Assembly (NCBI GenBank): GCA_000091205.1
Contig: AP006494.2
DNA from: Cyanidioschyzon merolae
Taxonomy: Eukaryota
Length of the DNA: 64,000 nucleotides
Direction: 5' to 3' (one strand)
The notes below the pieces were generated by a model that worked only from the letters and a program-made list of their open reading frames with translations, was not told the origin of the DNA and made no database searches. This document shows, in pieces, positions 1 to 31,660 of the stretch. The position numbers and the translations under genes were made by a program. Positions within the stretch are counted from its first letter, which is position 1; every line of letters begins with the position of its first letter.

Positions 1-2099
1 CCCCCCATTAACGCGATGATCCCAGCGCGAATGCGTCTCTGATTTTGACGTCTATCAATCCATACTCGTTAGGGATATTCCTTCGGCGGTACGGGCTGGC
101 CTCCTATGCATATGTCATGTTTTTCATCTAGCGTACCAGAGCCATTAGGGAATTACCTCCGGCGCTATGCTTTTTTTGGTCTGGCGGACTTGCCCGTTAG
201 TAAGATCGGCGAAATTGCTGGATCGATACTGGTTTCGGGAAATCGTCCATCCCGCTGACCAGTTTCTTTCCCTTCCTCGCATTTACTTTATCTCGGCTGT
301 GCTGATAGTTTCAGATATTGAACCCTGCGTCGCGTACCTGCCATCTGCATTCGCAGTGGCGTATCCGTCGCTGCTGCGGATGCAGTTTGGAAAGAGAGCA
401 GCTCTGACATACTACGGATCGCGTTGGAAAACGTTTGCTTCATGCAACGTAGGATTAAGTACATTTATTTTCTAGGCAGCCTTCAAGCTGTTCTTGCAGA
501 CCTTTTGCCTGCGATAGCGTAAAGCGCTATACCATTCCTCTACCGCAATCTAGGTGACTCTTTAGCGTAATATACCCGCTCCTGGTTCAGGATCTCTTCT
601 TTTGCCGAGGAGATGCTAAGGTGCGTTTTATCACTCGCTACTGTATTGTCTCTCTTATCAGAGGTTGGTAGAGTCTCGCTGCTTGCCGACCCTCCGCCTA
701 AATGTCACTGCTTGATTATACGCAAAGACTTCTTCCTTTTACTGTCTACAGTAGGTGGCATTAGTACTTGCTATCCCGTTTGTGTATATTATTTTTTTGT
801 ACTTTCTATATCGTGCGCCCTGCTTACGCATTGCGAACTCTGTCCGCTACTTCACTCTACGTTCGTGTTGCCGATCATGAGAAACGCGGTATTGACCTGT
901 TCTGGAGCGACTGCTCTTTCGGGGCCGCCTGCATTTGCGATCGAATTTTATCAAAGTATTGCTTTGGATTCAATGGCGTTTCTAACTTCCAGTATGTGTA
1001 TTGTACTGATGTTTGCGTTCAAGGCAGAAGCGTCCGATATGTTGTTCACTTAAAAAATGTCAGAGTTTTGTAATTTGAGGTTGTGGGTTGTGGATGTCCT
1101 GGGTTGCCTAGTTTAGGAACAAACGAGACATAGTAGCTATTGCTGAGGACTAGGAAAAGAAGAGGAAGCAAAATGGGGAGGCGCTACGACGAAGGCTGCA
1201 ATAGTGACATCTGTACGACTATATGGTTTTGTGATCCTGTTGTCTCCAACTTATCAATGATCCGTACAACTGAATGTTCCGAGATGCTTTCAGAAACCGC
1301 GTGGATTCGCACTCCAGGAATGTTTGTAGCTCTTGTTTAGGAGTGACGCATTTGCAGATCGAGCAGCATCGCGACGTAACGCACATCGCAAAAGTGGTAT
1401 TTCCGGAATAGTTTTTCAAAGAGAATTCTATCAACCACATGATTTCTCCGAAAAGGTAAGCATCAATGAGAAGAGAGCGGGCGGATGCCTACCTCAAAAT
1501 TTACGAGAAATTCCGCGACAACGGTGCTGGACACAGGGGTGACGCAGATATGTACGAATACAGGGCAATGGGTTTCCTCACGAACGCGAGGAACCAAAAA
1601 ATCTTAACCGTCGTCTTTTCCATGAATGGCGCCCCCTTTGCCCTCTACGCGGGCCTTCTTCGCGAAGGGATGCGGGCAATCATCGATGTTATCAGGAACG
1701 ATCGCAAGCATGAACAGGAGACCATATCCGTCGACAAGGTCACATCATGCTGGTTAACAAATGACGCTTCTGTTATCCGCGCCACTAGTCTAAAGCATCG
1801 TTCGGTCTTGGGGCTTGTCAACGCATGAGAAATATTCTCAGATATGAGTAAAGACGAAGAGATATATTACCCTATCCTCATGTCCTACTCCATGCTTTTG
1901 GACCGAGAACTCGAACGCAAGGCCGAAATGGAGCTGAGTATGGATATAATGAATTGCTGGAGAAATGGCACTGAAGACCTTCTCCCGTTGCGGTTTATTT
2001 TTCGTCCGGTTATGCGAGTTCAAGTCACATTTTGTGAATATCGACTCTAGATTTCTTTAGGCCTTCAAGAAAGAGATTTATCCAGTGCTCGATAGAGGC

Positions 2100-3840: not shown

Positions 3841-5538
3841 ATGGCGCCTGCTGTCAAGCGAAGAGCCGCGGACGCCACCGCCGCTTCGCTACCCGCCTCG
3901 TCGCCGTCAGCTGAGCGTGTGCAGGCGGCAGACTTGGACGTCATGCATCAGGGCCGCACCAAAGAGGACACACCACAGCATGAGCACCCGGGCGCTGACC
4001 CGCAGAAACAACAGGCATCACCACTCGAACGACTAGTGCTGCGCTCGACTGCGCACGTACGCGCGAACCCGGACGCCTGGCTCACGGGTGCGCTCGTGCT
4101 GCTTGGACTGTGGACGCGCCTCTACCGGATCCGCTGGCCACCCGAATGCGTCTTCGATGAGGTTCACTTTGCGTCGTTCGCACACCACTACCTCAATCGC
4201 ACCTACTTCTTTGATATCCACCCGCCTCTGGCGAAGCTCACGCTGGCCGCAGTCGCGAAACTCGCTGGTGACGTCCCGAATCGCGACTGGTACGTCGACA
4301 AGGTCTACCCACCAGACAGCCGGTACTATGCAATGCGCGCGTGCGCTGGCGTCTTCGGGGCGCTCCTGCCTCCGCTAGGCTTCCGCATCGCCCGCGGGAT
4401 GGGTATGTCGCGGATCGCAGCCACTAGTGTGGGCGTGTTTCTGCTCTTCGACATGCTGAACCTGATCGAGGCGCGCCATATCCTCACGGACTCGCAGCTC
4501 ATCTTCTACGCTGCGCTATGCATCGATGCGTTCGTGCGGCTGTGGCGCACGCCTCCAGCGAGCCGCGCTCGACGCTGGGCTGCTGTGCGCGCCGGCCTCG
4601 CGAGCGGTGCAGCGCTCTCAGTGAAGTGGACCACGCTCGTGGTGCCCGGCCTCTTCGGCCTCGAGTCGGTTGCCGGCGCTGCGCTCGCCGCCGAGCCGCT
4701 CGAGTGGAGCACCTGCGCGATCGTCGCCGCAACAGCCCTGCTCTTGTACGTGGCGCTCTGGTACCCGCACTTTCGGATTCTGATCTATAATGGACCAGGC
4801 GGTGACTTTATGAGCGCCGAGTTCCAGCGGACCCTCATTGGTCGCGACGGCTACGACCCGCAGGCCCGAAAGCCGCCTTTCCTCAAGCTCGTCTGGCAGC
4901 TCAACAAGGAGATGCTGCTGGCGAACGCGCGCATCCTCGATGAGCACCAGTGGCAAGCGCGCTGGCACACATGGCCATACGTAGGCCGTGGCCTCCTTTA
5001 CTGGAATCGCTGGCAGGAGGGTACGTTGGATGCTGACGGGCGACCGCTGCGCCCGCATCACGCCATGCAGATCTATCTGATCGGGAATCCGCTGCTGTTC
5101 TGGATGTGCTTGGCAGCGGTGCTTGGTACAGTGGCGGCAATGCCGTTCTTGCTGCGCCTGATTCGCCAGCGGAAAAAGCGTGGAACGAGCACGGACGCAT
5201 GGGAGCGCTACCTGCGGCTGGCAACATTCCTTCTGCTTGGCTATGCGCTCGGCATTCTCCCGTACATGCCGATCCAGCGAAGTACGTTTATCTACCACTA
5301 CCTGCCGTCGCTGTTGTTCGCGGAGCTGCTTTTTGCGCACGCGGTCCTCGATCTGCCGGCGCTACCGTCGGTGCTGCAGCTGCCGCTCGCCGGTATCGTC
5401 TGGATCGTTGTCTTCTGGTGCTTCTGGTACTTCCGCGCCTGGGTCTATGGACACATCGCGCTCACCGCCGACGACCATGAGGCCATGCGCTGGATCAAGT
5501 ACACGTCCAGCGTAGGCGACAACAAGGGATGGCACTGA
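3841..5538 (+). CDS. GT39-family dolichyl-phosphate-mannose protein O-mannosyltransferase-like (PMT-like) multi-pass membrane protein, 565 aa, apparently lacking the MIR domain
   Basis: Loop-1 signature 'VFDEVHFASFAHHYLNRTYFFDIHPPLAKL' matches the PMT/POMT catalytic DE motif region. Multiple hydrophobic segments follow, in one uninterrupted ORF. Confidence 0.75.
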   Translation: MAPAVKRRAADATAASLPASSPSAERVQAADLDVMHQGRTKEDTPQHEHPGADPQKQQASPLERLVLRSTAHVRANPDAWLTGALVLLGLWTRLYRIRWPPECVFDEVHFASFAHHYLNRTYFFDIHPPLAKLTLAAVAKLAGDVPNRDWYVDKVYPPDSRYYAMRACAGVFGALLPPLGFRIARGMGMSRIAATSVGVFLLFDMLNLIEARHILTDSQLIFYAALCIDAFVRLWRTPPASRARRWAAVRAGLASGAALSVKWTTLVVPGLFGLESVAGAALAAEPLEWSTCAIVAATALLLYVALWYPHFRILIYNGPGGDFMSAEFQRTLIGRDGYDPQARKPPFLKLVWQLNKEMLLANARILDEHQWQARWHTWPYVGRGLLYWNRWQEGTLDADGRPLRPHHAMQIYLIGNPLLFWMCLAAVLGTVAAMPFLLRLIRQRKKRGTSTDAWERYLRLATFLLLGYALGILPYMPIQRSTFIYHYLPSLLFAELLFAHAVLDLPALPSVLQLPLAGIVWIVVFWCFWYFRAWVYGHIALTADDHEAMRWIKYTSSVGDNKGWH

Positions 5539-8913: not shown

Positions 8914-9903
8914 TTATCTACCACCACCATGCCGTGATTCTGGCGCTGGGCCCTCAGAACGACTGCGCGCAGACTCCTCAGCGCGAAGGCGCAGCGCCTC
9001 TAGCAGCGCCTCCAGATCGTGCCGCCAGTCGCCCGCTGGTGGTGGCTCGATGCCAAACGCTGCGAACAGGGGACCAGCATCGCCGCGGCTGCGTCTCAGC
9101 GCAGTCGAAAGCGCCTCCAGCTGCTGCCGAAACGCGGCAGATTGCAGCACGCTCTCCAGGTCGATGCTGGATGGCAGGTACTCGCGGCACAGGGCAGCGG
9201 ATGCAGGTCCGAGGCCCGGCTCGCGGAGAAGCCGCTCCAGCGCGGGGCCCCAGCGCAGAAGCGCCCCGAGGTCAGGCGTATCATCGGCGCGCGCCTGCGG
9301 CTGTCGACTTGCGTCATCCGCAGCATGCACAGCATCGGAAGCAGCGCTGGCCCCCAGACGCTGCAGCGCGTCTACGAGCGACTGCCCAAGCGCGGCGGAC
9401 GACGGACGCGTCGCGCCGTCAGGTACCTGCGAGCTGAGGCCTGGCCCAGGTCGGGACTCTGCGTCGCTGAGCCGCACCTCATCTGCGTGATCCAAGCCAG
9501 CAGGGTCGTCCAGGGGACGACACTCGAGCGCGTTGCGCAGCCGCTGTGCCAGCCGCACGTCCGCGTCGCAGCGAGGCTCTTGCAGCCAAAAGAACAGCTG
9601 TAGATCCGACGACGCAAAGCCCAAGACGAACATTCTACCAGTCCGGCAGGCGTGCACGCGCCGCCAGTTCGCGTCGCCGGGGAACACGATCAGGTCCTCC
9701 TCGATTGCACGGGTTGCGCGGTCGAGCCACTGGAAGTGCACGAGGCCGTCCGCGGCTCGCACGACACGGACGCAGCCCTTGCGGCCGTCCGAGTGCACCA
9801 AACCACTGTCCAGGTACGCGCGACCTGCGCGGAACTCCACCAGTACCTGCTCTGGAAGTTCGTCCATCTGGCGTTCCAAGCTTGAAACACGGCCGTCCCG
9901 CAC
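8914..9903 (-). CDS. RPN13: Proteasomal ubiquitin receptor Rpn13/ADRM1-like (N-terminal Pru domain, C-terminal DEUBAD-like region)
   Basis: 'LVEFRAGRAYL...RKGCVRVV...LVHFQWLDRATRAIEEDLIVFPGDANWRRV...TGRMFVLGF...LFFWLQEP' aligns with the Pru domain consensus (LVEFRAGKM...KGLVYI...LIHFCWKDRT...EDDLIIFPDD...GRVYVLKF...LFFWMQEP). Confidence 0.7.
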   Translation of the reverse strand: MRDGRVSSLERQMDELPEQVLVEFRAGRAYLDSGLVHSDGRKGCVRVVRAADGLVHFQWLDRATRAIEEDLIVFPGDANWRRVHACRTGRMFVLGFASSDLQLFFWLQEPRCDADVRLAQRLRNALECRPLDDPAGLDHADEVRLSDAESRPGPGLSSQVPDGATRPSSAALGQSLVDALQRLGASAASDAVHAADDASRQPQARADDTPDLGALLRWGPALERLLREPGLGPASAALCREYLPSSIDLESVLQSAAFRQQLEALSTALRRSRGDAGPLFAAFGIEPPPAGDWRHDLEALLEALRLRAEESARSRSEGPAPESRHGGGR

Positions 9904-10973
9904 ACCAAAGTCACACTCGCTCCGAGCAGCAAGGCTCGACAGTCAGCCACGCGAAAGCCGGTGTAGCGCTCACGGGCTGTCCGGTCATGGACGCCGCACT
10001 AAAACGGCGGCAGTGGCACCAAGACCGAAACTGATAATAAAAGCTACTCCACCGACAATGCAGTACACGCTAGACGGTGCAGCAGCTTGCACCGATACGA
10101 AACGTTCAGAAGTACTACGAGAGGCGACACACGCCGCGCACGAACGAGGTCAGGCGCTCTGAATGCCGCTCCGGGCATCGAGCTGGGAGGCGCCGGCGCG
10201 GCGCCGCCTCTGGTGACTGCAACCCACGAAGGGCGCAGCTCACTCATGGGGCGCGTCTCGGGCCCTCCTGTGTGCCGTTACACTGATGCCCGCACGTTGC
10301 AGCGCATGACTTGGCGAAGATGTATGACGAGCCGTGCATGACACCTGACGGCGAGCATAGCGCAGCGGTCAAGCGACTGCAGATTCCCGATACCAGAGCG
10401 CTCCGTCCAAGTCCCTGGTGTGTATCACAGCGACATGCTGCCCCCGAGGCTCTCGTAGACGCAGCGTGTGCGTGTCCGGTGCCTCTCGCATCCATGCGCA
10501 TCACAGAGAAGCGCGAGTGATTGCCAGCGCACGCACATAGTACACGTGTCCAGTGCGTTGCTTCCGTATGCACGCATCCCGAAAGCACCCCGAAAGGAAA
10601 TCCAATTGCACCACGTGAACCGGTCTCGTTCACCGTTACGCTCTGTTCGATACGAGAATGTATGAGCAGTACAGCGAGCAACCACGAAATCAATGTGCTG
10701 TTACCAGCGATGTGGCATAAAAGCATCAGCGAGCACATTGACCCCTGTGGAATCGCTCCGTGGGAATATTGCCCTGCACGGCTTGGCAGGATCGTCCATC
10801 ACAGGAATCGCACCGTGCATGACGCTGGCGTTCCGTCGCCATCGAACGCACCTGGTGTACTACGAAACCACCTGCCCGGCATGTCTCTGTCGTATCAAGC
10901 AGCGCATCCATCAATGAGTGCGCAGCTATTCATCTGAAACTCGCTGCCAGCAGGCCGGCATTCACGCCGCGTA

Positions 10974-11044
10974 CCGATCCCGTGCCGATCCCGTGCCGAT
11001 CCCGTGCCGATCCCGTGCCGATCCCGTGCCGATCCCGTGCCGAT
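10974..11044. repeat. 11-bp minisatellite (ccgtgccgatc) x about 6.5, about 200-260 bp upstream of the FTR1-like gene
   Basis: Direct reading. Confidence 0.9.
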
Positions 11045-11237: not shown

Positions 11238-12884
11238 GTGTTCTTAAAGTACTCTCACGGGCTTTTGCATACCATCCCCGACCGTGCTAGTCCTTGCTTT
11301 ATCATGGTACAGCTCTTCTCACTGGCAGGCTTTATCATTACGTTTCGCGAGATCCTCGAGGCCTGCATCGTGGTTTCGATCTGTCTGGCATACCTGCGGC
11401 GCACCAAGAATGAGCGCTACCTCAGAGACGTCTGGCTGGGCGTTGCAGCCGGCGTCGGTGTGCTCATCGTCATTGGAATCGCATTCGGCATCGTTTTCTG
11501 GACGCGCGGCCAGAAGCTGTATACGGGTCTCACTGAGCTGCTCTTCGAGGCCATTGTCCGACTGGTGGCGGTAGTGCTCATCACGTGGATGATCTTCTGG
11601 ATGCTCAGCACGGCCGCGCACATGCGCCGCGACCTCGAGGGCGGGATAGCGCGGGCGCTGTCGAGGCGCGGCCGATGGGGCGTTGCGCTGCTCGTCTTCA
11701 CGTCCGTGCTGCGTGAGGGCGTCGAGCTCATCGTATTCCTGTTCGGAATCACGGGCGGTGTCTCGTGGAGCTCGATTCCCATCGCCGCAGCCGTCGGCGT
11801 GGCCGTTGCGCTGGTCGTTGCCTGGGCAATCTACCGCGGGGCGCTCGCCTTCGATCTGCGCCTCTTCTTCGCGCTGTCGTCGCTGCTGCTGATCGCATTC
11901 GCTGCGGGCTTCCTGTCGACGGCCTTCCTGGACCTCCAGAAAGCGAACCTGTTCGGGGCATTCACGCGCAACGGCAACGAGGACGAGTCGATTCCATCCA
12001 CGGAGCGGCCGTGGTGGAATGCCGCGCTCTGGTCCACCGAGGCCTGCTGCGCGGACGACGGGAACGAGTTCTTCAACCTGCTGCACGAGCTCTTCGGATA
12101 CGTGGATGCGCCGACCTTCGTCTCCACTGTCGTCTACTTCGGTTACTGGACCCTGGCTGGCGTGCTCTGGATCATCGTTGAGCGACGAACCCTGGAGCGC
12201 AAACTCTGCCAAATGCACACCGGGTACCTCGTATCGACTGCGTTCCTGGCGGTAGCTGCCATGGTGGGGCTCGTCGTCGCCGCTCGCAGCCCGACATGGA
12301 ACGGCATCCTGGTGACGTGCCTGACTCAGGTGCTGGCGATCATCGGTGTAGGTGCCGCCAGCGCGCCCCATGCAGCGCTACCGCCGCGTGCGCGTTTCGC
12401 CCTCCAGGGCTCCTGCTGGATAGGCCTCGTGCTGGTAGCGTGCCTGGCGCTGGCGCTGCAGGTTGCACAGGCGATCTGCTCGCCGCAGATTGGCGCGTCT
12501 CAGTACTGCTCTATCCCCGATTTCTACTATTGGTTCGTCATCTTCTCCCCGGACTGGATCGCAAAGACACGGGACGATAACAGCTTCCACGCGCTCGCGG
12601 TGCTTACCGTGTCGATATGCTTCACGATGCTGTTCTGCCTCGGACAGGGCCTGGTCGGCTTCTACGAGTGGAAGCGTTCGGCGCTGGCGATGCAGCGTGC
12701 TGGACAAGCGCCAGCGGCTCTCGCCAAAGAGGCGAATACATCGTCGGATCTGGAAGGCGGGAAATCCACGCCGCTCGATGACTCCTCGATCGATGAGCTT
12801 ACCTGGGAAGCGCTCGATTCGACGCAGCCTCCGCAGCACGCGTCGCAGATCGAGATCTCGGCGAGACGGATGCTGGCGGATTGA
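11238..12884 (+). CDS. FTR1: FTR1-family high-affinity iron permease. The true start is probably the Met at 11304 (MVQLFSLAGF...).
   Basis: Two RExxE iron-binding motifs ('REILEA' in TM1 and 'REGVEL' in TM4) in a multi-TM protein, forming one long ORF. Confidence 0.75.
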   Translation: MFLKYSHGLLHTIPDRASPCFIMVQLFSLAGFIITFREILEACIVVSICLAYLRRTKNERYLRDVWLGVAAGVGVLIVIGIAFGIVFWTRGQKLYTGLTELLFEAIVRLVAVVLITWMIFWMLSTAAHMRRDLEGGIARALSRRGRWGVALLVFTSVLREGVELIVFLFGITGGVSWSSIPIAAAVGVAVALVVAWAIYRGALAFDLRLFFALSSLLLIAFAAGFLSTAFLDLQKANLFGAFTRNGNEDESIPSTERPWWNAALWSTEACCADDGNEFFNLLHELFGYVDAPTFVSTVVYFGYWTLAGVLWIIVERRTLERKLCQMHTGYLVSTAFLAVAAMVGLVVAARSPTWNGILVTCLTQVLAIIGVGAASAPHAALPPRARFALQGSCWIGLVLVACLALALQVAQAICSPQIGASQYCSIPDFYYWFVIFSPDWIAKTRDDNSFHALAVLTVSICFTMLFCLGQGLVGFYEWKRSALAMQRAGQAPAALAKEANTSSDLEGGKSTPLDDSSIDELTWEALDSTQPPQHASQIEISARRMLAD

Positions 12885-13549
12885 ATCAGGGCGCAGCGCG
12901 GCACCAGGTCACCGCCGACGACTAGGCGGTACTCATAACAGCGAGCGCAATCCATGTGCAACGCGACGTATCGCACTTGCCGATTCAAAGAGAATGACAG
13001 CGCCTGTGGTTACCCGTCGCGGAGCCGTTCGCATGGTGATAGCGTCGGCATCACCTGACACCCACTCCGTGGCGCTATGGTGCTTTGCCAAGAACGCGCC
13101 CCTGGTTGCCACAGCGTTGCGTACCAGCGAATGGATCATGCGTCGAGCGCTGCTCTGGTGCGATCATAGACAAGTTCACGTCGAATACTTTGCGCACCGC
13201 TGTACCGCATACCGATGACTCGTCTAGCATGCACTGCTACCGTACAGTAAAGAACGCTCGTGCAATGCGTATCCCGTTTCTCGCTATCCTGAAAGACAAC
13301 GGCTCCTCGAGCACACAATATCTCAGCATGCAGGAGTCGAGACGCTCTCATCAAGCAGCGCAGCGGCTCCAGCGCCCTGCACGATTGCCCGACGAAACGC
13401 CTGGGGCGCGCCCCGATCAAATACCCGAGACACGCCATGCGCGGGAAACCTGGGGCAGTACTGTTTCGCCTGCAAGTAGGAGGGTGCACTCAAGTGATAT
13501 CCAGAACTTCCCGCAGCCTGGACACGAGTGCCAACAGGTCGCTTCAAGT

Positions 13550-14464
13550 ATGCCAGACGAGAGCGCTCAAGTTCGTTTTCTGATAGTCGGACGCACCGGT
13601 TGGATCGCCAACATGGTTGCAGAGCTACTTGAGCAGCGCGGTGAGCGGTACGCGTTTGCGAGCTTCCGTCTCGAGCAGCGCGAGGCCTGTGAGCGCGAAC
13701 TGGACGCGCTGTGCCCACAGCGGGTCCTGAACTGTGCTGGGGTCACTGGGCGTCCGAACGTCGACTGGTGCGAGGACCACCGGCGCGAGACCGTCCGCAG
13801 TAACGTACTGGGCGTGCTGAACCTGGCGGACTGCTGCGCGTCGCGCGGGATCCACCTCACCAACTTTGCTACCGGCTGTCTATACCACTACGACGACGGC
13901 GAGCACCGGCCGACGGCTGAGGGCGGCAGGCCCTTCACGGAGGACGATCCGCCGAACTTTTTCGGTAGCTACTACAGTCGCACCAAGGCCATGGTGGAGG
14001 AGCTGCTGCGCAGCGCTTTTGACAATGTGCTCATCCTGCGACTGCGCATGCCCGTGAGCGACGACCTGTCGCCGCGCAGCTTTGTCACGAAAATCGCACG
14101 CTACGAAAAGGTTGTGAATATCCCCAACAGCATGACGGTTTTGACGGAGCTGCTGCCAGTGGCACTGGATATGAGCGAGCGCGGCCTTACGGGCGTGTAC
14201 AACTTTACCAATCCGGGTAGCATCTCGCATAACGAGGTCCTGGAGCTTTACAGAAAATATATCGATCCAAAGTTCCAATGGAAGAACTTTACGCTCGAGG
14301 AGCAGGCAAAAATCCTCAAGGCCGGCCGCTCCAACTGCGAGCTCGACGTCCGCAAACTGCTGCGGGACAATCCCGGTGCCCAGATCCGCGAGGTCCACGC
14401 CGCCATGGAGGAGGTCTTTCGGCGCATGCAGGCGAAGGGTGTCAAGCCGCTGGTGGCGCCCTAG
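13550..14464 (+). CDS. UDP-4-keto-6-deoxy-D-glucose 3,5-epimerase/4-reductase (NRS/ER-type, second step of UDP-L-rhamnose synthesis), 305 aa
   Basis: Near-colinear match to plant NRS/ER: 'FLIVGRTGWIANMV', 'NCAGVTGRPNVDWCEDH', 'YSRTKAMVEELL', 'FVTKIARYEKVVNIPNSMTVLTELLP', 'KNFTLEEQAKIL'. The ORF extends 5' to 13085, but the homology starts at Met 13550. Confidence 0.85.
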   Translation: MPDESAQVRFLIVGRTGWIANMVAELLEQRGERYAFASFRLEQREACERELDALCPQRVLNCAGVTGRPNVDWCEDHRRETVRSNVLGVLNLADCCASRGIHLTNFATGCLYHYDDGEHRPTAEGGRPFTEDDPPNFFGSYYSRTKAMVEELLRSAFDNVLILRLRMPVSDDLSPRSFVTKIARYEKVVNIPNSMTVLTELLPVALDMSERGLTGVYNFTNPGSISHNEVLELYRKYIDPKFQWKNFTLEEQAKILKAGRSNCELDVRKLLRDNPGAQIREVHAAMEEVFRRMQAKGVKPLVAP

Positions 14465-15675
14465 TATAGCACCGCAGGTGGCGTACTTTGCGGCAAAACG
14501 GTTACGCACCGAGTGACGGGTCGATGGCGTGCGCTCCCAGGGACGACTCGCTTTGCGTGCAGGGAAGCGACTGCGACTGCAGGCGCGCTAGCACAATCCT
14601 GTACTGGGCGAAAGGAACGGAAGCGTCATTGGCACCAGGGCACTTACTGCCGTGTAAGGCACCTTTCGACGCGGACCTCAAGGCTGACTGCGAGGCGTTC
14701 TGGAAAGACTTGCTCCGATAGGCTAGCTCCGCTGTGGCATCCGCTACAGGCGAAATCGGATACCGGGATGATCCAACTGCAGCGCCCTTCTAATAGTGAT
14801 CCGTGTAAATGACGCAAGCCTCTGAAGAGAGTGCATCAAAGTGGCGCAGGCATTTGTTCCTGGCGTTCATGTGTGCCTTCGAATGCAGCATCCAGGGGCC
14901 TGCAGGCATTGGCTGGACGACTGCCTGCTAGCAGCGGTCAGGATTACAGGGATCCAAGGGACTCGATACGTGCATACGTGCATTACTGCATTCGTGCATG
15001 CTTCCATACGTAAAAACGTGTGAATGCTGGTGAGCACTGCGCGAATATGTGCACGCGCGCACGCTGCAGCATGGGAACACAGCGTTCTCGCCACGCTCTG
15101 GCTGGGATGTCTGAGCGACGGGAACGTGCTGTCGATGCTGCCACATAAGCAGAGTCCGTCAAGGCCGACACGCTCGAGACAGCGCTCATGAATTGCATAG
15201 TGGAGCGGATTCACGTGCGCGAACACAGGAACGAACACACAAACAAGTCCTAGTGGCAAGGCGAGTTTCAACAGATCCCCGAAAGCGCCCACACTCCGTA
15301 CCTGCCAGCAACATCACTGTCGGTCGCTATCGCGCTGCTGCCCACAGCGCGAATGATGCACACATATCTCCTTGGATTCATGCCGCCAGCCTCTGTGTTG
15401 ATCCTTCTGCCCTACACCATGATGGAAGCGCGCGATCCACAGAGTGCGCGCGCAATCGCCGCCCGTCGCATCAGCGATGCGTGCGCGGTGGCGACGCTGC
15501 TGCCGCCATCATCGGTCGCATACCTGGGACACGTGTCTCGCTAGAGATGGATCCTGTTGAAACAGAAACGCGCGCTACGATCGTGGCGTTTACCGTCTGT
15601 GCAGGCAGAGCTCGGAAGTAGCCGGTGCGTGTGGTTGTGTGCGTCCGAGTCGAAAGGCGCACGTTGGCAAGATAA

Positions 15676-16806
15676 ATGTCCTCGCAGAGCACGGCGCTTT
15701 CGAACGGTGCCAAGTCGGTAACCGGTGGACAGCCCGACGGGAACTCGGACGCGCGGGTCGTCTACGGCGACCGTCTGCGCTTCGTGCCGCGGAATATCCT
15801 TGTGACTGGCGGTGCCGGCTTTATTGCCTCGCACGTTGTCGAACGGCTCGTGAGTCGATATCCCCATTACCGCGTGACGGTACTGGACAAGCTCGACTAC
15901 TGCTCGTCGCTGAGCAACCTCGCGCAGGTGGCAAACCGACCAAACTTCAAGTTTATTCGCGGCGATATCCGCTCGCATGACCTGGTGCTCTACGTGCTCC
16001 AGGAGGAGTGCATCGATACAGTGCTCCACTTTGCGGCGTGCACGCACGTCGATAACTCGTTCACGTCCTCGATCCTGTTTACGGAGAACAACGTGCTGGG
16101 AACGCACGTTCTCCTGGAGTGCGCACGCCAGTACGGCAAAGTGCGGCGCTTCATTCACGTCAGCACCGATGAGGTGTACGGCGGCGAGAGCAACATGGAG
16201 ACAGAGTCATCGATCCTGGCACCCACGAACCCGTACGCATGTAGCAAGGCCGCCGCCGAATTCATTTGCCGCGGCTACGTCAAGTCGTTCGGATTGCCGG
16301 TGATCATCACACGCGGCAACAACGTGTACGGGCCGCACCAGTTCCCCGACAAGCTCATTCCCAAGAGTATCTGTCTGCTGGCGCAACGCCGGCCCTGCTT
16401 TGTACACGGCTCTGGTGAGCATGCACGCAACTTTTTGTACGTCGAGGACGCGGCGAGCGCCTTTGACACCATCCTGCATTGTGGCGAGACCGATGAGGTC
16501 TACAATGTAGGCTCTGAGATCGAGAAACGCAACATTGACGTTGTGCACGACATTATCGATCTCTTCGGCCTGTCTGCCGAGGCGAACCGCCACATCGAGT
16601 TTGTCAAAGATCGCACCCTCAACGATATGCGCTACAGGATCGACTCGTCGAAGCTGCATGCGCTTGGCTGGAGGCCGCAGGTGTCCTGGGAAGAGGGCCT
16701 GCGCCGAACCAAGACCTGGTACTGCGATCCGAATAACCTGAAGCGCTGGCCGAATTATCTCAGTGGCCTCGTACCGCATCCGAGTCTCACCGAGGAGAAG
16801 CACTAG
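15676..16806 (+). CDS. UDP-glucose 4,6-dehydratase (RHM N-terminal-domain type, first step of UDP-L-rhamnose synthesis), 376 aa
   Basis: 'NILVTGGAGFIASHV...VLDKLDYCSSLSNL...NFKFIRGDI...HFAACTHVDNSF...NNVLGTHVLLE...RFIHVSTDEVYG' and the YxxxK segment 'YACSKAAAEF'. Very close to plant RHM/UG4,6-Dh. Confidence 0.85.
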   Translation: MSSQSTALSNGAKSVTGGQPDGNSDARVVYGDRLRFVPRNILVTGGAGFIASHVVERLVSRYPHYRVTVLDKLDYCSSLSNLAQVANRPNFKFIRGDIRSHDLVLYVLQEECIDTVLHFAACTHVDNSFTSSILFTENNVLGTHVLLECARQYGKVRRFIHVSTDEVYGGESNMETESSILAPTNPYACSKAAAEFICRGYVKSFGLPVIITRGNNVYGPHQFPDKLIPKSICLLAQRRPCFVHGSGEHARNFLYVEDAASAFDTILHCGETDEVYNVGSEIEKRNIDVVHDIIDLFGLSAEANRHIEFVKDRTLNDMRYRIDSSKLHALGWRPQVSWEEGLRRTKTWYCDPNNLKRWPNYLSGLVPHPSLTEEKH

Positions 16807-18281
16807 GACGGCATTCATCGCGTACGCACTGTGCATGCGGCAGGCGAGATTTCGAGCGACACTGCCGCTGGTCTGTGCATCACAGACGGCGATCCGCAGA
16901 GCAGCGTGGCATAGGATCGCCAGCGGATGCGCCTTTTGTACATGTATGACGGTTACAAGCGTGTCTCAGGTGCGCCTTTCTCGACAAGTCTGTAATACGA
17001 GGCGCTTTCGTGTCGCCTGCAACACAGGACGCATCTGAAGCGATGCGCACCGACGAAAGCGCGCATACTCTATCGACCGAGGGTCGTGGGCTTGCGACCT
17101 CATGATCTTGTGCCGGTTGCAGAGCGTATGTTACAACACACGACAGCAGCAGGGCAGTTGACGCAGCACAGGTTCGCGCGCGGCAGGTACAGCGAGCTCT
17201 GGGCGGCCTCGGTTGCACCGATACGCTCTGCGCTTGACGCGCTTCTGTTGCATAAACGTGTACTGAGGCTGTGCTCCAATAACCTGCAAGACGCCTATGT
17301 CCCATGCCACGCGGTTTGCAGAGGTATGCTTTCGTCGAGTTTGCGTCTGGAAGCGCGTTGTTACGGGTGCGGCGGGTGAAGCGTTCCGCGTCAAGAACTA
17401 GCCGCACACCGGCACGCTGTGCTGTGTCAGAGCCGTCACCAGCGTCACCGTCCAGTGGCGACCAGCCGACCCAGACAGTGCGTGTACGACCTGATGAGCG
17501 GCCGCTGCGGCTGAATGCGCTACAGCGCTGGATGCTCGGCCGACTGAGGCGAAGCCTCGAGCGTCTCTCCCCCGGCAACGTGCCCAACCTGCTTAGGAGC
17601 GCCGTCGCGCGGGCGCGTGGTGCCCCCGCGGATCCACCGCCCTTGGACGATGACTACCTCGCTCGGACCATGAGATTTTATTTGAACGCTCAGTCACGTT
17701 GCTTGCCCTTCAACGCTGAGAACGAAAGGCAGGAATTCCGAGTTTCAGCTCCGTTCTCGTCTTTTGCATGACCCGCTAATTATCACACCAAGAAATCGAC
17801 TCCCTCGCGAAAAGAATGCGGCTAAACTGCGACTTCACAACCGCCATGACACCGGCAAAAAGAGCATTCATGGGTTTGGCATACTACCACATCTTCATGC
17901 ATTATACACGACGGAAATGAAGAATTCAGAAATAAAGCCTTCGAGGCAGCATTTTATGAATCGTTTACAAATCTCGAGATACTGAACGTGCATCAAGCAT
18001 TCTCTGCAAAACACGTCACTCCTCTGAGTGGCTATTTTCCCAAGTGCATTCTCTGTTCATAAGTATACCACAAGCTTTGAAAACATGTGCATCTGATAGT
18101 GATGCCGCTCACCTATTTCAGAGAAAAATTACACACAACCATATTACCAACAATACCCCTTATCAGAACATGCAGTTCGCTTTCGATCCTTCACGAAGCA
18201 TGTGCACTTGATGCACCTTTCAGCTCGTCGACGACAAATATCAAAGTCTGCTGCATTCGAAAACCTCTCTGAAAGGATTTT

Positions 18282-20591
18282 TCATAACCCATTCGAGGGC
18301 TGCGGTGGCTTGGGGTCCTCAGATGCGTTTGTGGCTGCTGCGGCGGCAGCGGTCAGGTCGTCGAGAAACGCCTCGGGCGAGAGCATCTCGGTTGTTCCGT
18401 AGATAATCTGGCGATCGTCGTGGATGCGAGTGGTGAGATTCTCCCACTCAATAAAATTGCCACCTCCGACCATAAAAACGATCGCTTCGGTAAACGATCC
18501 ACGCGGCAGGGATGAGGCTTTGTTTGTGCAGTGCCCGTCTCGTGCAGCAAGTGGATCCAGCAGTAATGAGGCTGCACGTTCTGCAGCTGCACCTGGGTGC
18601 TCATGTTCCGCGCCCCGCGAGGCCGAATCCAAGTCATCGTCGGGCGAGGCGTTCCGCATCCACGAGTCGACAATACTGGCAACGATTCCGCTCCGCGTCG
18701 TGGGAATCAGGCCCTTCACGGTGCTCGCCAGCTGCGTCAGGCCTTTGTGGCCGTGCTCATAGATTCGAGTGACCAGCGACTCGAAGATTTCCCTGCCTCC
18801 ACCTGTCGCTGTCGTGAGGCGATCGATCATGCGGCTGCTGCTTTTGCGTGCCGGCGACGGACTGTTGCCGTCCCTGTGCGTTGCAGCGGGGTCGAGCTGG
18901 CGCGGTGTCGCTGCGCGCTGGCGCATCACGTAGCTCAGAGCGCTCGTCTGACAGCCACAGATATCGAGTACATGACGGTATTCTGCGAGCTTGGTCTGCG
19001 GAATTCCTGACGGCGAGAGGATCTGGTACATAAGCAGCAGCCGCAGGCAGTCGCGGGCTCGCTGACTCAACGACGAGGCGTCCGCGGAGGCCGTACTGGA
19101 ATGCGGTTTCGCTAGAAGATCGGCTTCCCCAATGAATCGGTCTAGCGAGTTCGATTGCACACTCGAAGGCCTTTCCAGCAGTGAATCCTCGAGCTGAAAC
19201 AACAGGTCCAACTTCCGTGCCTTGATCTGCTCCAACAGTGCGGATGCGATGTTCGTATGCATATCGAGCTGCCGCTTCCATCGAGTTAGTCGCGGAAGCT
19301 CGGCGACGGCGTCAGCAATCTCCCGAGTGCTTGTGCCGGTTGCCTGCATATAGGCCTCGAGCTGCGTCTCGTCTGCCGTCTCCGCGAGCAGCTTCTGGAC
19401 ATTGCTGCCTCCGCCAGTCCGTGCATTGATCTCCTGAACCTGCGCACGGTACGCTGTCAACGCTGTTTCGATATGCTCCGCCACTTGCGGGAACGGCAAC
19501 GAAGCATTTTCGGCCCAGAACGGATCGGCCTCGTCATCGAGGTCGTACTGCGTCCGCTCTGTGCCGGGCTTGGTTGCCGGCATGCTGACTCGGCTCAGCT
19601 CGAATGGCAAGAGCTCGTGGATTAGCGCCTCATAGGTCCATCCGTGGTGCAGCATGATGGCCAGGTCGACGTCACGGTCGAGCAGCGCCAGCAGCGGCCT
19701 TCGCAGTGGCGGCAGGCCGGCTTCACTGTGTTCGCGGAACAACGCCGCCCCGCCTGGCGTATGCATATACTCCCAGATTTTGGCGCACAGTTGCAGTGCG
19801 ACTCGCTCCGATGCGCCGCGTCGCAGGCAACGTATATACGGCACACATCTTAGGGTCACGCAAACAGCAAATAAACTATCCACAATAGTCGCGATCGTTT
19901 CCTGAATCGCCTGCTCATCGGCCTGTGCACTGAACAGACGCTGGAAAGAGCGCCGCGCTATGCTTGGCGGCATGCTGAAGAGGTTGCGCTTCAGACAAAC
20001 AAAGCCGCAGTACAGGTCCACGACGCGAGTAACGGACTCGATGCGCCGAGCTCGAGCCAGCGCCTCGGCCAGACGCTCAAGCTCGTCGCGGCTGATAGCC
20101 GAAAGAAAATATATACTGCAGTGTGCGTATCGATCCGCAGCACAGTCTCGGACAATCGTCTGAATATTCTCGTGATTCGGCTGGATCAGGTAGACAGCTG
20201 GGACCTCGGGTATGACTTGGCGCGAGCTCTCTAAGTTCAGGTGTAACGTAACGCCGCACGTTCGTAGTGTTGGCACCTTCAGCACAGGAGCAAGCACCTC
20301 GCGCGCCGTTTGGTCGATGACGAGCACCTTCCAAAAGTCTCTGTACACGTCTTCCGCGTCCAAGTCGTCTACGGTCGCCGCGGCAGCATCGTAACCGGGG
20401 TTCAGTTGTCCATGCAGTGCACCGTTGGCAGCGCTGTGTCCGGTAGCGGCCTCAGCGCCGCGGAGCGGGTTACTGAGCGCCTCGCAGAGAACAGCTTTCT
20501 GCCGATCCCGCAACGAGAACCACGTTTTCGCCAATGATTTGAGCTGCGTGGCGAGGTCCGAGTGACGACTCGGCTCTGCTCGCGTTAGCAT
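18282..20591 (-). CDS. Sec1/Munc18-family vesicle-fusion regulator, SLY1/SCFD1-like. The ORF extends to 20921, but homology begins near Met 20591.
   Basis: 'WKVLVIDQTAREVLAPVLKVPTLRTCGVTLHLNLES...VPAVYLIQP' Sec1-family N-terminal domain signature, plus 'DPFWAENASLPFPQVAEHIE' downstream. Confidence 0.6.
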   Translation of the reverse strand: MLTRAEPSRHSDLATQLKSLAKTWFSLRDRQKAVLCEALSNPLRGAEAATGHSAANGALHGQLNPGYDAAAATVDDLDAEDVYRDFWKVLVIDQTAREVLAPVLKVPTLRTCGVTLHLNLESSRQVIPEVPAVYLIQPNHENIQTIVRDCAADRYAHCSIYFLSAISRDELERLAEALARARRIESVTRVVDLYCGFVCLKRNLFSMPPSIARRSFQRLFSAQADEQAIQETIATIVDSLFAVCVTLRCVPYIRCLRRGASERVALQLCAKIWEYMHTPGGAALFREHSEAGLPPLRRPLLALLDRDVDLAIMLHHGWTYEALIHELLPFELSRVSMPATKPGTERTQYDLDDEADPFWAENASLPFPQVAEHIETALTAYRAQVQEINARTGGGSNVQKLLAETADETQLEAYMQATGTSTREIADAVAELPRLTRWKRQLDMHTNIASALLEQIKARKLDLLFQLEDSLLERPSSVQSNSLDRFIGEADLLAKPHSSTASADASSLSQRARDCLRLLLMYQILSPSGIPQTKLAEYRHVLDICGCQTSALSYVMRQRAATPRQLDPAATHRDGNSPSPARKSSSRMIDRLTTATGGGREIFESLVTRIYEHGHKGLTQLASTVKGLIPTTRSGIVASIVDSWMRNASPDDDLDSASRGAEHEHPGAAAERAASLLLDPLAARDGHCTNKASSLPRGSFTEAIVFMVGGGNFIEWENLTTRIHDDRQIIYGTTEMLSPEAFLDDLTAAAAAATNASEDPKPPQPSNGL

Positions 20592-21178
20592 CGTGGCCTT
20601 TTGAGGTTGACTACCAGCAGGTAGCAGGCAAGGAGGCAGCCGCCTGCCGTCAACGCCTCCATGAGTCTGTGCGTACGCTGGGATTGCTGCGGCGGCGATC
20701 CCGCCACAGTCGAGAGCACCTGCTGCTCTCGGGAGCGACTCGACGTTCACGAGCAACAGGAAAGAAGCAGTCATCAGCGATATGATATATAGGACCTTGA
20801 CAGCAGAGGAGCAATAAATATGAGCAGGCTTCTCGGTCTGTCTGGTCCCTGTCATCCATATATGGTGCTCCCGTAATGAATGAAGAGCGAGCAATCTGAA
20901 CCGACTTTTTAGCATGTTCAATCTCTTTCAATCATATAATGTGCTCCTATGGCGGATAGAGACCGTCCAATCTCATGAAACTTCTTTCGACGATCCGCTC
21001 CTGTCTGCAATGCAACGTGCTTGCCAAGGATCCGTTCTCGGGTGGTGCTTGTCGATCATTTGCACCGTATCGCGTACGAGACTCCATCCATCGAGGCCTG
21101 GACTTGCAGCACAGCTACATGAGCACATAGATACACGTCCATTGTCGAGGCTCAACTGCGGTTCGGTTCCGTCTCTGA

Positions 21179-24400: not shown

Positions 24401-25660
24401 TCAGTAGACAATGAGCCAGCGACCGTGGTAGCGACGACGCCTACCGAAACGTCGCCTCCAACGAAGGCGCCACGGAGCATACGCGCTAGCACGGAACTGG
24501 TGGTGTAGCACCAACGTGATCGAAGTTCCAGGAGACTTGCCACATGCGAAAGCGCTCTCTTGGCGGAGGCCGTTCATTTTCCGCACACGCTTCGATCGAG
24601 AACGCTGTGTACTGTCCGCGATGCCGGACTTGAGTGGCGATACAGACGGCGGGCAGACATGCGTAAACTCGCTAACGTTTGGAGAATTACAGGCACCACC
24701 GTTAACGGAAATCCGCCCCGCGCTTATTTTGGTCTTATTCTGTTGTGGTGATCCCTGGCGCTGGTGGCGAGCATCGGGCTCTCTTGCCTCAGATCTTGAG
24801 GGTTCGTTTTCCTGAGCAGGCCTCGCAAGAGCCGCATCATCTTCGAAGGCGTCGTGCGAAGATACGCTGCGAGCCGGCTGCACTGAATGCGTCTCCTCGG
24901 TCGCCTCGTGACTTTCTTGCGCATTCATCGCAACTACCACGCTCGATGCACCGATTCGAGGCTTTTCCAGCTTCTCGATATCGTCAGATGGGCACCCTGC
25001 ATACCGAGTACACAGCGGAGAGCGTTGTTCGTCGTTCCGTTTCGCTGCTTGCCAAAGTTTCCTTTCCAGTTCCGTGATTCTCTCTGATGCAGCCCCAGTA
25101 CACGCCGCACTTGTACCTGCGTTCTCCGAACTTCGCTCTGCGCAAAGCGAGCGAGCGCTGTCAGGTGTGTCCAAGGTAACAGCCGGCATCGCGGTGGCTA
25201 TCGGCTTCTGGAGTGAAGCCGGTGTCAGCTCCGAGTCCATGTGGCACGCCTTCGTTGCACGAACATGTGGCGTGCCTTTTGATGTTCGAGACGGAAGCGG
25301 GCTCGGCACATCAAATCCTAGTCGACGGAGCTCGCGTGCCGCCCGCGCCGTCAAGGGCACCGACTCAACGCCGCCGGCACAGGTCGGACCCGAATGAACA
25401 CCCAGTCCGAACTCTACAGACGGGAGTCCAGGCGATTCCAGCGCAAGAACTTTTATTGTTTGCTGCGGAGTGACACAAGCGGACGACGTTCCTGTAGGGT
25501 CGCCCCGGCTGTGTGCTCCACGCCGTTCACGCTGGCCTCTCCCGGGTGTTTGTATTTCCACGGTTAGTCTGTCAGCTGACCCCAACTCCAGGGTATCCTG
25601 GCTCGATACTGGACACCCGTCCTCGGTCTGGTATCTTTTGCTCCTGGAGCGTGTGATCAT
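24401..25660 (-). CDS. Hypothetical low-complexity (Ser/Ala/Arg-rich) protein, 419 aa
   Basis: A long ORF only, with no recognisable motif. It may be spurious in this GC-rich context. Confidence 0.25.
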   Translation of the reverse strand: MITRSRSKRYQTEDGCPVSSQDTLELGSADRLTVEIQTPGRGQRERRGAHSRGDPTGTSSACVTPQQTIKVLALESPGLPSVEFGLGVHSGPTCAGGVESVPLTARAARELRRLGFDVPSPLPSRTSKGTPHVRATKACHMDSELTPASLQKPIATAMPAVTLDTPDSARSLCAERSSENAGTSAACTGAASERITELERKLWQAAKRNDEQRSPLCTRYAGCPSDDIEKLEKPRIGASSVVVAMNAQESHEATEETHSVQPARSVSSHDAFEDDAALARPAQENEPSRSEAREPDARHQRQGSPQQNKTKISAGRISVNGGACNSPNVSEFTHVCPPSVSPLKSGIADSTQRSRSKRVRKMNGLRQESAFACGKSPGTSITLVLHHQFRASAYAPWRLRWRRRFGRRRRYHGRWLIVY

Positions 25661-30454: not shown

Positions 30455-31660
30455 CACCAGGAGGCGTGCGGTATCCGGGTTGACTGCCGCTCGGGTACTA
30501 GAGGCCATGCCTCGTATGAGTGGCTCGATACCCACCGCCGTTCTAAGTCGAACGACAGCGGTGTACAATAGTGGCGGCAAACGCGCCCTAGACATAGCGT
30601 CTCCAGCCGAGGGGCAGACGCCTCCCAGTTTTTTTTCGACAGGCCACCTACTGCTGCTTCCAATCATGTCTCAAATAGCTCGACTTTGAGAGATTGTCCA
30701 ATAAAGTTCATTCTTGTCAGCTCTGGAGGTCTCGTCTCCAGCGCTGCACATCTCCTAATATTGATCGCGGCATTAAAGTCACGATTCACGAATTCCATGC
30801 GTTTCGTGTCATCATTGGTTGTACTTACCAATGCAAGGGGTCTACGAACTTTCGCCCTCCTCTCCATTTGCTCCTCCGTCAGTGGTCCGTACTTTTTTAT
30901 ATCTTCAGGGCTCCGCTGACACTTTTCCATCTCCACTGTCTGAAGTGTACATCCCAACTCGTGGTGTGTATAGGACGTTCGGAACTCATCTATCGGTATC
31001 GTAACGAAACGCCGTGCACACTCTTTGTACGTTCTTGTCGTTGGAGCTGGTGTACACCCTTTTTGGGTCTTCCATCGCCCTGCTCCGTACGCGACTACGA
31101 GCCTTTGATTTCATTCTCCTTCAGGGCACTCAACCCAATGAAAAAGTTGGCAAACGCCCGCTACCTCCCACCGTATAGATTCATACGCAAACGAGCCCAC
31201 CGGGGCTTGGTATACTCCTCCCATAGCGCCTCCCAGTGAGCAACACGAACTTCTATGAATTTCCGAAAAGCTTTAAAGTCCGCTCCTCGGCTCGTCACCT
31301 CGCTCGAAGCTTCCAGGGGATCTTTCATTCCTGAATTCCACGTACAAATTTTCTACCTCGCATTCATTATACCGGATCCTCGATAGTATCTTGCTCTCGA
31401 GAACCTCAAAAAGACGCATATCTTTCTGACGTAAGTTACCATCAGTCCCATCTTCCGCACACTTTGGTACAGCGATGGTTATGATGTTCGTATTCCCAGG
31501 GTCCACGCCAACGACAAAGTCGTGATCCTGCATCTCCTGCATCGCAAGATCCGCACCCTTCTCATCTACATGCTTCGCCACGTCAACGACAAGGTCGTCA
31601 TCCTCCACTTCCTTCGTCGCAGGATCCGCATCCTTCTCATCTATATTCTTCGCCACGGGC
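30455..31660 (-). mobile_element. TnpB/Fanzor-like RuvC-domain repeat copy 2, minus strand. RuvC-I 'DFVVGVDPGNTNIITIAVP' lies near 31461-31527, RuvC-II-like 'VAHWEALW' near 31200, a C/H-rich Zn-finger-like stretch follows, and RuvC-III 'FVNRDFNAAINIRRC' is near 30750. It is N-terminally truncated, with a conserved 3' tail reaching to about 50 bp from the APE1 ATG.
   Basis: Motif order D..E..(Zn)..D matches TnpB. The open frame is broken at least twice, and it is homologous to copies 1, 3 and 4 in both coding and 3'-flank segments. Confidence 0.6.
31507..31656. repeat. Tandem duplication of a 75-bp unit (2 copies, about 85% identical) at the 5' end of Fanzor-like copy 2, at the junction of the inverted pair
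   Basis: Units 31507-31581 and 31582-31656 align base-for-base with scattered substitutions. Confidence 0.85.

Follow-up and report, generated by a model that had tools for sequence, protein, structure and literature searches.

Two genes that stand next to each other near a chromosome end of the red alga Cyanidioschyzon merolae 10D raise the question of which sugar-nucleotide pathway they encode and why they have remained neighbours. They lie on the + strand of the 64,000-nucleotide stretch analysed here (the window; contig AP006494.2 of assembly GCA_000091205.1), 13.5-16.8 kb from the telomere at the left end of chromosome 12: CML005C, a predicted epimerase/reductase (ER, 304 aa), is followed by CML007C, a predicted dehydratase (DH, 376 aa), and both open reading frames (ORFs) are intact. 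An earlier note on this DNA had described the same-strand tandem, with about 1.2 kb between the genes, as a split form of the UDP-L-rhamnose pathway. The arrangement is confirmed by the ORFs and by Pfam and solved-structure matches, and the pathway is supported by the enzyme classes to which those matches point. The note overlooked the subtelomeric, multicopy setting, and separate genes are the normal state of this pathway outside plants and nematodes. We consider it highly probable that C. merolae carries near-identical copies of an old two-gene UDP-L-rhamnose module at four subtelomeres and that the locus is one of them. The core of this finding is already known, the pair having been annotated and mapped at C. 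merolae chromosome ends since 2007; our additions are modest, namely the predicted pathway, the deep linkage of the two genes across the Cyanidiophyceae, their pair-specific expression in the diploid and a probable inner edge of the duplicated block at position 17661.

Enzymes encoded by the pair

CML005C matches the Pfam profiles RmlD_sub_bind (1.5e-16) and Epimerase. Among solved structures its best match is the bifunctional Arabidopsis NRS/ER (4qqr, 4.7e-106, over residues 5-276); a structure deposited as 'UDP-L-Rhamnose Synthase' (7jid) gives 1.6e-65 and a bacterial RmlD structure just 2.7e-07. The protein carries the motif G14-R-T-G17-W-I-A together with C110, Y142, K146 and K181, which align with Arabidopsis C115, Y144, K148 and K183. 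In Arabidopsis NRS/ER, C115 and K183 form the epimerisation pair and the Tyr/Lys the reductase pair. Against the rmlD equivalog model (TIGR01214) CML005C scores 61.3 bits, well below the cut-off of 224.05. These features make it most likely that CML005C is a UDP-4-keto-6-deoxy-D-glucose 3,5-epimerase/4-reductase of the NRS/ER (UER) type.

CML007C matches GDP_Man_Dehyd across the full profile (1e-68) and Epimerase (2.6e-58). Its best solved-structure match, ahead of the bacterial RmlB series, is 6vlo (1.6e-87), deposited as a 'putative dTDP-D-glucose 4,6-dehydratase'. We take 6vlo to be mimivirus R141, and 7jid to be mimivirus L780. The extended short-chain dehydrogenase/reductase (SDR) features are all present, including G45-G-A-G-F-I, the T164-D165-E166 triad and Y187-x-x-x-K191. 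The TIGR01181 equivalog for dTDP-glucose dehydratases gives 346 bits, again short of its cut-off (365.1). The named top matches are proteins of red algae, euglenids, stramenopiles and Balamuthia, with no bacterial protein among them. CML007C thus appears to group with eukaryotic and not with bacterial dehydratases, a placement drawn from the top matches, the structures and a neighbour-joining tree without a bacterial outgroup. GenBank annotates the protein as dTDP-glucose 4,6-dehydratase, and the supplement of Mikulski 2017, consulted for H3K27me3, names it solely inside GO term lists. By homology, the most likely assignment is UDP-glucose 4,6-dehydratase. Since both proteins score below the equivalog cut-offs, the dTDP- and Rfb-type names rest on similarity and not on family membership; the genes would have been mislabelled as bacterial dTDP/Rfb genes, the predicted pathway being the eukaryotic UDP-rhamnose route.

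In the predicted scheme, CML007C with bound NAD+ would convert UDP-glucose to UDP-4-keto-6-deoxy-glucose, and CML005C would then epimerise C3 and C5 and reduce C4 with NAD(P)H, yielding UDP-beta-L-rhamnose. This predicted chemistry is that of the plant enzymes RHM and NRS/ER (UER1), and the ER keeps the equivalent residues. In the trifunctional RHM of plants, however, the two activities are fused with the dehydratase N-terminal, whereas the C. merolae ORFs are separate, have their own stops and lie 1211 bp apart with the ER upstream of the DH. Another parallel is with the split pathway of fungi, protists and giant viruses (Botrytis BcDH/BcER, Trichomonas UGD, mimivirus R141/L780), which likewise divides the work between two SDR proteins and has these catalytic motifs. 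According to Yin 2011, the two activities sit in separate genes in eukaryotes outside the plants and nematodes, C. merolae has these enzyme families, and some eukaryotes have the dehydratase alone. The earlier description of both proteins as extremely plant-like does not hold: the ER is nearer to chytrid, amoebozoan (Dermamoeba) and stramenopile (brown-algal) ERs, at 60-65% identity, than to Arabidopsis NRS/ER at 57%, and the nearest relatives of the DH are in red algae and euglenids.

The annotated start of the ER probably needs a correction. GenBank models CML005C as a protein of 411 aa from an upstream in-frame ATG at 13229; the conserved start lies at 13550 (304 aa, MPDESAQ...). The chromosome-14 copy is likewise annotated at 411 aa, while the other two copies and all orthologues have 302-304 aa. 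Hence, the 107-aa N-terminal extension (13229-13549) is probably an annotation artefact. Among the ER homologues, three proteins from metagenomes or metatranscriptomes (P0002, P0004 and P0006) are 484-525 aa long, 53-55% identical and form a branch of their own in the ER tree; the bit scores of P0002 and P0004 are at least that of the 80%-identical Cyanidium ER. These three proteins may contain an extra or repeated domain.

Linkage, copies and expression of the pair

The two genes are neighbours in several cyanidiophycean genomes. In Cyanidium caldarium the ER precedes the DH on the same strand at a distance of 290 bp, as it does in a Galdieria sulphuraria-type assembly (L009) at about 770 bp; on a further cyanidiophyte contig (L006) they are adjacent and divergent, the ER being flipped, with 692 bp between them; and in Cyanidiococcus adjacent ER and DH gene identifiers occur at two loci. 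No partner was found within 10 kb at five other loci, those of Porphyridium purpureum, the fungi Orbilia and Spizellomyces, Balamuthia, and Galdieria partita, whose DH is divergent and for which a published orthogroup table lists no ER orthologue. As the adjacency recurs in each of the sampled cyanidiophycean lineages and is seen at none of the five other loci, we do not regard it as due to chance. The neighbours upstream of the pair differ among the cyanidiophyte loci, which means that the ER-DH core is older than the subtelomeric copying described below and has survived rearrangement, including the inversion of a single gene. In the sampled fungal and amoebozoan genomes, in contrast, ER and DH are not neighbours; the earlier statement that split adjacent genes are known from some fungi finds no counterpart in the two fungi sampled here.

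Two observations on Galdieria stand beside this. The G. partita DH (L007, 7686-11226) is 55% identical to that of L009 and lies head to head with a glycosyltransferase gene of the Galactosyl_T family (PF01762). In L009, a weak second ER/RmlD-like match, with 26-49% identity in two pieces, occurs at 515-1197, some 9 kb upstream of the two linked genes, and shares part of its extent with a 75-residue gene call (1-777) that continues beyond the start of the locus.

We examined the shared history of the two genes with neighbour-joining trees, which contained no bacterial sequences and, for the DH, no land plants; they test concordance within the group and not deep origin. Both recover the order (L006,(Cyanidium,(Cyanidiococcus,Cyanidioschyzon))) with bootstrap values of 74-100%. 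The ER tree places Galdieria as their sister group, with a bootstrap of 69 for all Cyanidiophyceae, and the DH tree leaves its position unresolved. The cyanidiophyte DH falls amid other red algae, with the G. partita DH on a separate, divergent branch, and the cyanidiophyte clade of the ER tree does not have Arabidopsis NRS/ER as its sister. These patterns fit a joint, vertical inheritance of ER and DH since the cyanidiophycean ancestor, which is said to be more than 1 billion years old. Unrelated origins and an unconserved adjacency, named in the earlier note as grounds for abandoning its reading, are not what we find, in that the adjacency persists among relatives and each gene tree agrees with the species tree; its suggestion that the pair was acquired as a unit finds no support, vertical co-inheritance fitting the trees.

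In C. merolae the pair belongs to a block that is repeated at several chromosome ends. Nozaki 2007 (BMC Biol 5:28) distinguishes eight kinds of homologous element, the longest reaching 20 kb, adjoining the telomeres, and the genes in its Fig. 3 include a dTDP-glucose 4,6-dehydratase (D), a dTDP-4-dehydrorhamnose reductase (R), an iron permease (I) and a mannosyltransferase (M). In its account of the subtelomeres, Cho 2023 (Nat Commun 14:10) reports a PMT-RPN13-iron permease-RfbD-RfbB block on four chromosomes of C. merolae (10, 12, 14 and 17) and two of Cyanidiococcus (8 and 15). The D-R-I-M element and this block are the same locus, of which the window contains the copy from the left end of chromosome 12; its genes and their order beside the telomere repeat agree with the published ones. 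The placement follows from the FTR1, ER, DH and PMT protein matches and from the remnant CCCCCCATT at the very start of the window, the reverse complement of AATGGGGGG, the telomere unit of C. merolae (Nozaki 2007); behind it the PMT, FTR1, ER and DH genes begin in that order (Table 1). The passages on this block in the two papers use dTDP- or Rfb-type names, and in them we find neither the pathway proposed here, nor an ER-DH linkage beyond Cyanidioschyzon and Cyanidiococcus, nor phase-specific expression. The linkage predates the subtelomeric duplication of these papers and extends beyond it, to Cyanidium and Galdieria; in Cyanidium the single-copy ER-DH core is present although the duplicated block is not seen there in the account of Cho 2023.

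The 10D genome has four ER and five DH genes, the copies outside the window being characterised from protein accessions, locus tags and the literature. Consecutive FTR1, ER and DH accessions are found on contigs of 839,707 bp, 859,119 bp and 1,232,258 bp, and FTR1 and ER accessions on one of 852,727 bp. At least three chromosomal copies encode one and the same DH protein, and the four ER paralogues differ at few residues; the fifth DH (BAM80917.1, CMM017C) differs at one residue and has no ER beside it. In the lineage of Cyanidioschyzon and Cyanidiococcus, the pair would have come to lie near a chromosome end and then been copied, together with PMT, RPN13 and the iron permease, to other ends.

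Its expression pattern sets the pair apart within this block. In RNA-seq data published with a study of the sexual cycle of the Cyanidiophyceae (Data Set S8 of Plant Cell 2026), which cover the diploid MS1 (2n) and the haploids Ha3 and 10D (n), ER and DH alone within the block are 15- to 65-fold up in the cell-walled diploid relative to the wall-less haploids (Table 1). In transcripts per million (TPM) for MS1, Ha3 and 10D, the ER stands at about 196, 6.5 and 3.4 and the DH at about 76, 3.8 and 5.8. The adjacent iron permease gene runs opposite to the pair, being high in haploid 10D (about 67 TPM), low in the diploid (about 5) and intermediate in Ha3 (about 14), and the chromosome-10 copy of the pair shows the same pattern as the chromosome-12 copy. 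As the neighbours deviate and the chromosome-10 copy agrees, the co-regulation is specific to the pair and does not reflect a general chromosome-end effect. The co-regulation anticipated in the earlier note is thus borne out, and the pair ranks among the sharply diploid-specific loci in an existing data set. At the level of the gene family, the two are induced together in the walled diploid phase and are nearly silent in wall-less haploids such as 10D.

The mechanism does not appear to be a shared promoter, as the earlier note had proposed to check. A comparison of the ER and DH upstream regions for common cis-elements or repeats returned just chance-level 11-21-mers, no gene and no repeat above chance level was found in the 1211-bp spacer, and a scan of 12800-18300 gave no Rfam match. 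Each gene has its own upstream region, and the variable spacer length among the relatives, along with the flipped orientation in L006, disfavours both a single transcript and a common promoter.

Use of the pathway and competing explanations

The predicted pathway, the wide linkage and the expression pattern together offer a lead on the composition of the newly discovered diploid cell wall of the Cyanidiophyceae. UDP-rhamnose would most likely feed glycans of the cell wall or of extracellular glycoproteins. The diploid wall is reported to be largely protein, and the genome to have no cellulose synthase genes; the main text of the Plant Cell 2026 study never mentions rhamnose, and a 2026 preprint found it in the insoluble wall material of C. 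merolae in one culture condition only. If the proposal is true, rhamnose would be an unrecognised building block of the diploid wall.

A further step, which we put forward tentatively and regard as possible rather than probable, is that ER and DH form a selected metabolic cluster, linked since the ancestor so as to restrain the DH, and that the subtelomeric copying raised the dosage for a wall made by the diploid only. In Botrytis, UDP-4-keto-6-deoxyglucose is toxic once the ER is lost, and the authors of that work cite linkage as a guard against toxic intermediates. By analogy with fungi, linkage in C. merolae would, speculatively, ensure that the dehydratase is neither passed on nor expressed unless the enzyme clearing the toxic keto-sugar goes with it. 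With the toxic-intermediate gene pairs treated by McGary, Slot and Rokas 2013, as far as that account of them goes, the C. merolae pair shares consecutive steps, conserved linkage and co-expression, the toxicity being known elsewhere and here assumed by analogy. As a natural experiment of modest size, the pair would bear on the view that genes of one pathway remain neighbours because this averts a toxic intermediate.

Several points weigh against the reading as a UDP-rhamnose module kept together for the diploid wall. The preference for UDP or dTDP is not readable from the sequence, and the pathway is predicted from homology; among related characterised enzymes, Arabidopsis NRS/ER and the two from mimivirus work with either nucleotide. 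CMM017C and G. partita keep a DH without an ER, so the dehydratase can persist alone, and the toxic-intermediate rationale for linkage in red algae, taken over by analogy, is speculative. The RNA-seq reads multi-map among copies whose proteins are 99-100% identical, and hence the phase specificity is secure for the gene family and not for the chromosome-12 copy alone. In the 2026 preprint, rhamnose is absent from most C. merolae wall preparations.

Among the alternatives, one would make UDP-4-keto-6-deoxyglucose the real product of the DH, as with animal TGDS, the ER acting mainly as a shunt and rhamnose being a by-product. A 2025 Nature report on animal TGDS describes its product as rescuing UDP-xylose synthase; the rhamnose pathway of Botrytis 'serves as a shunt', and losing rhamnose itself brings no phenotype there; some eukaryotes have the dehydratase only, 10D has more DH than ER genes (five against four), and G. 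partita has a DH and no ER orthologue. However, ER and DH are co-induced, with the ER transcript at least as abundant as that of the DH in the chromosome-12 copy, which fits a flux to UDP-rhamnose; the induction is confined to the phase that forms a wall; C. merolae material has been found to contain rhamnose; and the G. partita DH sits on its separate divergent branch. We therefore think this explanation unlikely.

We consider very unlikely the reading embodied in the GenBank annotation, namely a bacterial-type dTDP-L-rhamnose pathway (RfbB/RmlB and RfbD/RmlD) acting on dTDP-glucose. It shares the gene names that Cho 2023 gives in its description of the block, and the DH score comes near the TIGR01181 cut-off. 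The ER, however, falls far short of the rmlD cut-off, matches NRS/ER far better than RmlD and has the Cys and Lys equivalent to C115 and K183, the epimerisation residues of NRS/ER; the block holds no separate RmlC; published phylogenies group red-algal NRS/ER with plant and other eukaryotic UDP-type enzymes; and, as a weak point, no thymidylyltransferase was found in the part of the annotation table that was searched. A rhamnosyltransferase was not found in that part of the table either, which says nothing on the whole genome.

Entry of the pair as a unit from a bacterium or giant virus, with the tandem reflecting the donor's gene order, is highly improbable: although about 1% of cyanidiophycean genes are put down to horizontal transfer in a published account, with some of them amplified in subtelomeres, 6vlo is presumably a mimivirus enzyme, and most other red algae have been published as having no ER, the DH groups with red algae and the ER with broad eukaryotes with no bacteria among the named top matches, each tree agrees with the order of species inside the group, the GC content of the block matches that of its surroundings, and mimivirus R141 and L780 are, going by their gene numbers, not neighbours.

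The subtelomeric block and its surroundings

The features of the window around the pair are collected in Table 1, in which the UDP-rhamnose assignments are those argued for above. PMT is the outermost gene of the duplicated block, and its product is identical to BAM81152.1 of another chromosome; the paralogues of the iron permease are BAM80403, BAM81154 and BAM81942.

Table 1. Features at the left end of C. merolae chromosome 12, with transcript levels in transcripts per million (TPM) and log2 fold changes (FC) from Plant Cell 2026, Data Set S8
Feature	Position	Strand	Basis	TPM, 2n MS1 / n Ha3 / n 10D	log2 FC, 2n/Ha3, 2n/10D
Telomere-repeat remnant CCCCCCATT, marking the chromosome end	1..9	.	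reverse complement of AATGGGGGG; sequence reading
CML001C, GT39 dolichyl-phosphate-mannose protein mannosyltransferase-like gene (PMT)	3841..5538	+	exact match to BAM80644.1	27-32 / 12-20 / 40-46	1.2, -0.35
CML003C, RPN13-like block member	8914..9867	-	Rpn13 Pfam matches of the gene in collinear contig L001; named in the block description of Cho 2023	76-92 / 97-107 / 95-108	0.0, -0.06
CML004C, FTR1-type iron permease, block member	11304..12884	+	Pfam FTR1 9.9e-47; exact match to BAM80647.1	about 5 / 12-16 / 62-71	-1.25, -3.55
CML005C (BAM80648.1), predicted ER	13550..14464	+	100% protein identity; Pfam, solved-structure matches, residues, tree	190-205 / 4-8 / 3-4	5.2, 6.0
ER-DH spacer, 1211 bp	14465..15675	.	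ORF coordinates
CML007C (BAM80649.1), predicted DH	15676..16806	+	100% protein identity; Pfam, solved-structure matches, residues, tree	69-79 / 2-5 / 5-6	4.6, 3.9
Gene X, 5' remnant of 119 codons	17304..17661 (region 17304-17771)	+	alignment with environmental contigs
Probable inner edge of the block	17661..17662	.	collinearity with L001/L002 ends; unique chromosome-12 sequence starts
CML009C (SLY1), in unique chromosome-12 sequence	18282..20921	-	lies beyond the block edge	36-40 / 34-41 / 60-66	0.27, -0.47
CML012C	24401..25660		protein match

The inner limit of the block can be read from two contigs of environmental C. merolae (L001 and L002, 98.7-99.2% identical to the window), whose collinearity with it extends from 9657 or before to exactly 17661, beyond which they diverge completely. 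Position 17661 is thus probably the inner edge of the duplicated block in the chromosome-12 copy. The break cuts through a gene that we call gene X. In the environmental contigs it is complete and encodes a protein of 214 aa with an LxxLQRxLLxRL motif and a hydrophobic C-terminal tail, a tail that is gone in the window copy; the protein has no Pfam or NCBIfam match. Homologous or syntenic X genes lie 3' of the DH in Cyanidium and on the L006 contig. An intron can be ruled out as the explanation of the break, there being no GT at the junction and the continuation seen in L002 being found nowhere in the window.

A third environmental contig (L003, 1-4013) shows homology to the window solely from 15474 onward. 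It encodes an identical DH protein, and the shared DNA reaches only 202 bp upstream of that gene, which follows an unrelated gene of 714 aa without a Pfam match. There is no ER, an arrangement that resembles the ER-less CMM017C.

Two repeats were also seen. An 11-bp tandem repeat, CGTGCCGATCC, perfect-looking and in 6.8 copies, lies at 10970-11044, just upstream of the iron permease gene, and a 75-bp repeat occurs in 2.1 copies at 31503-31657.

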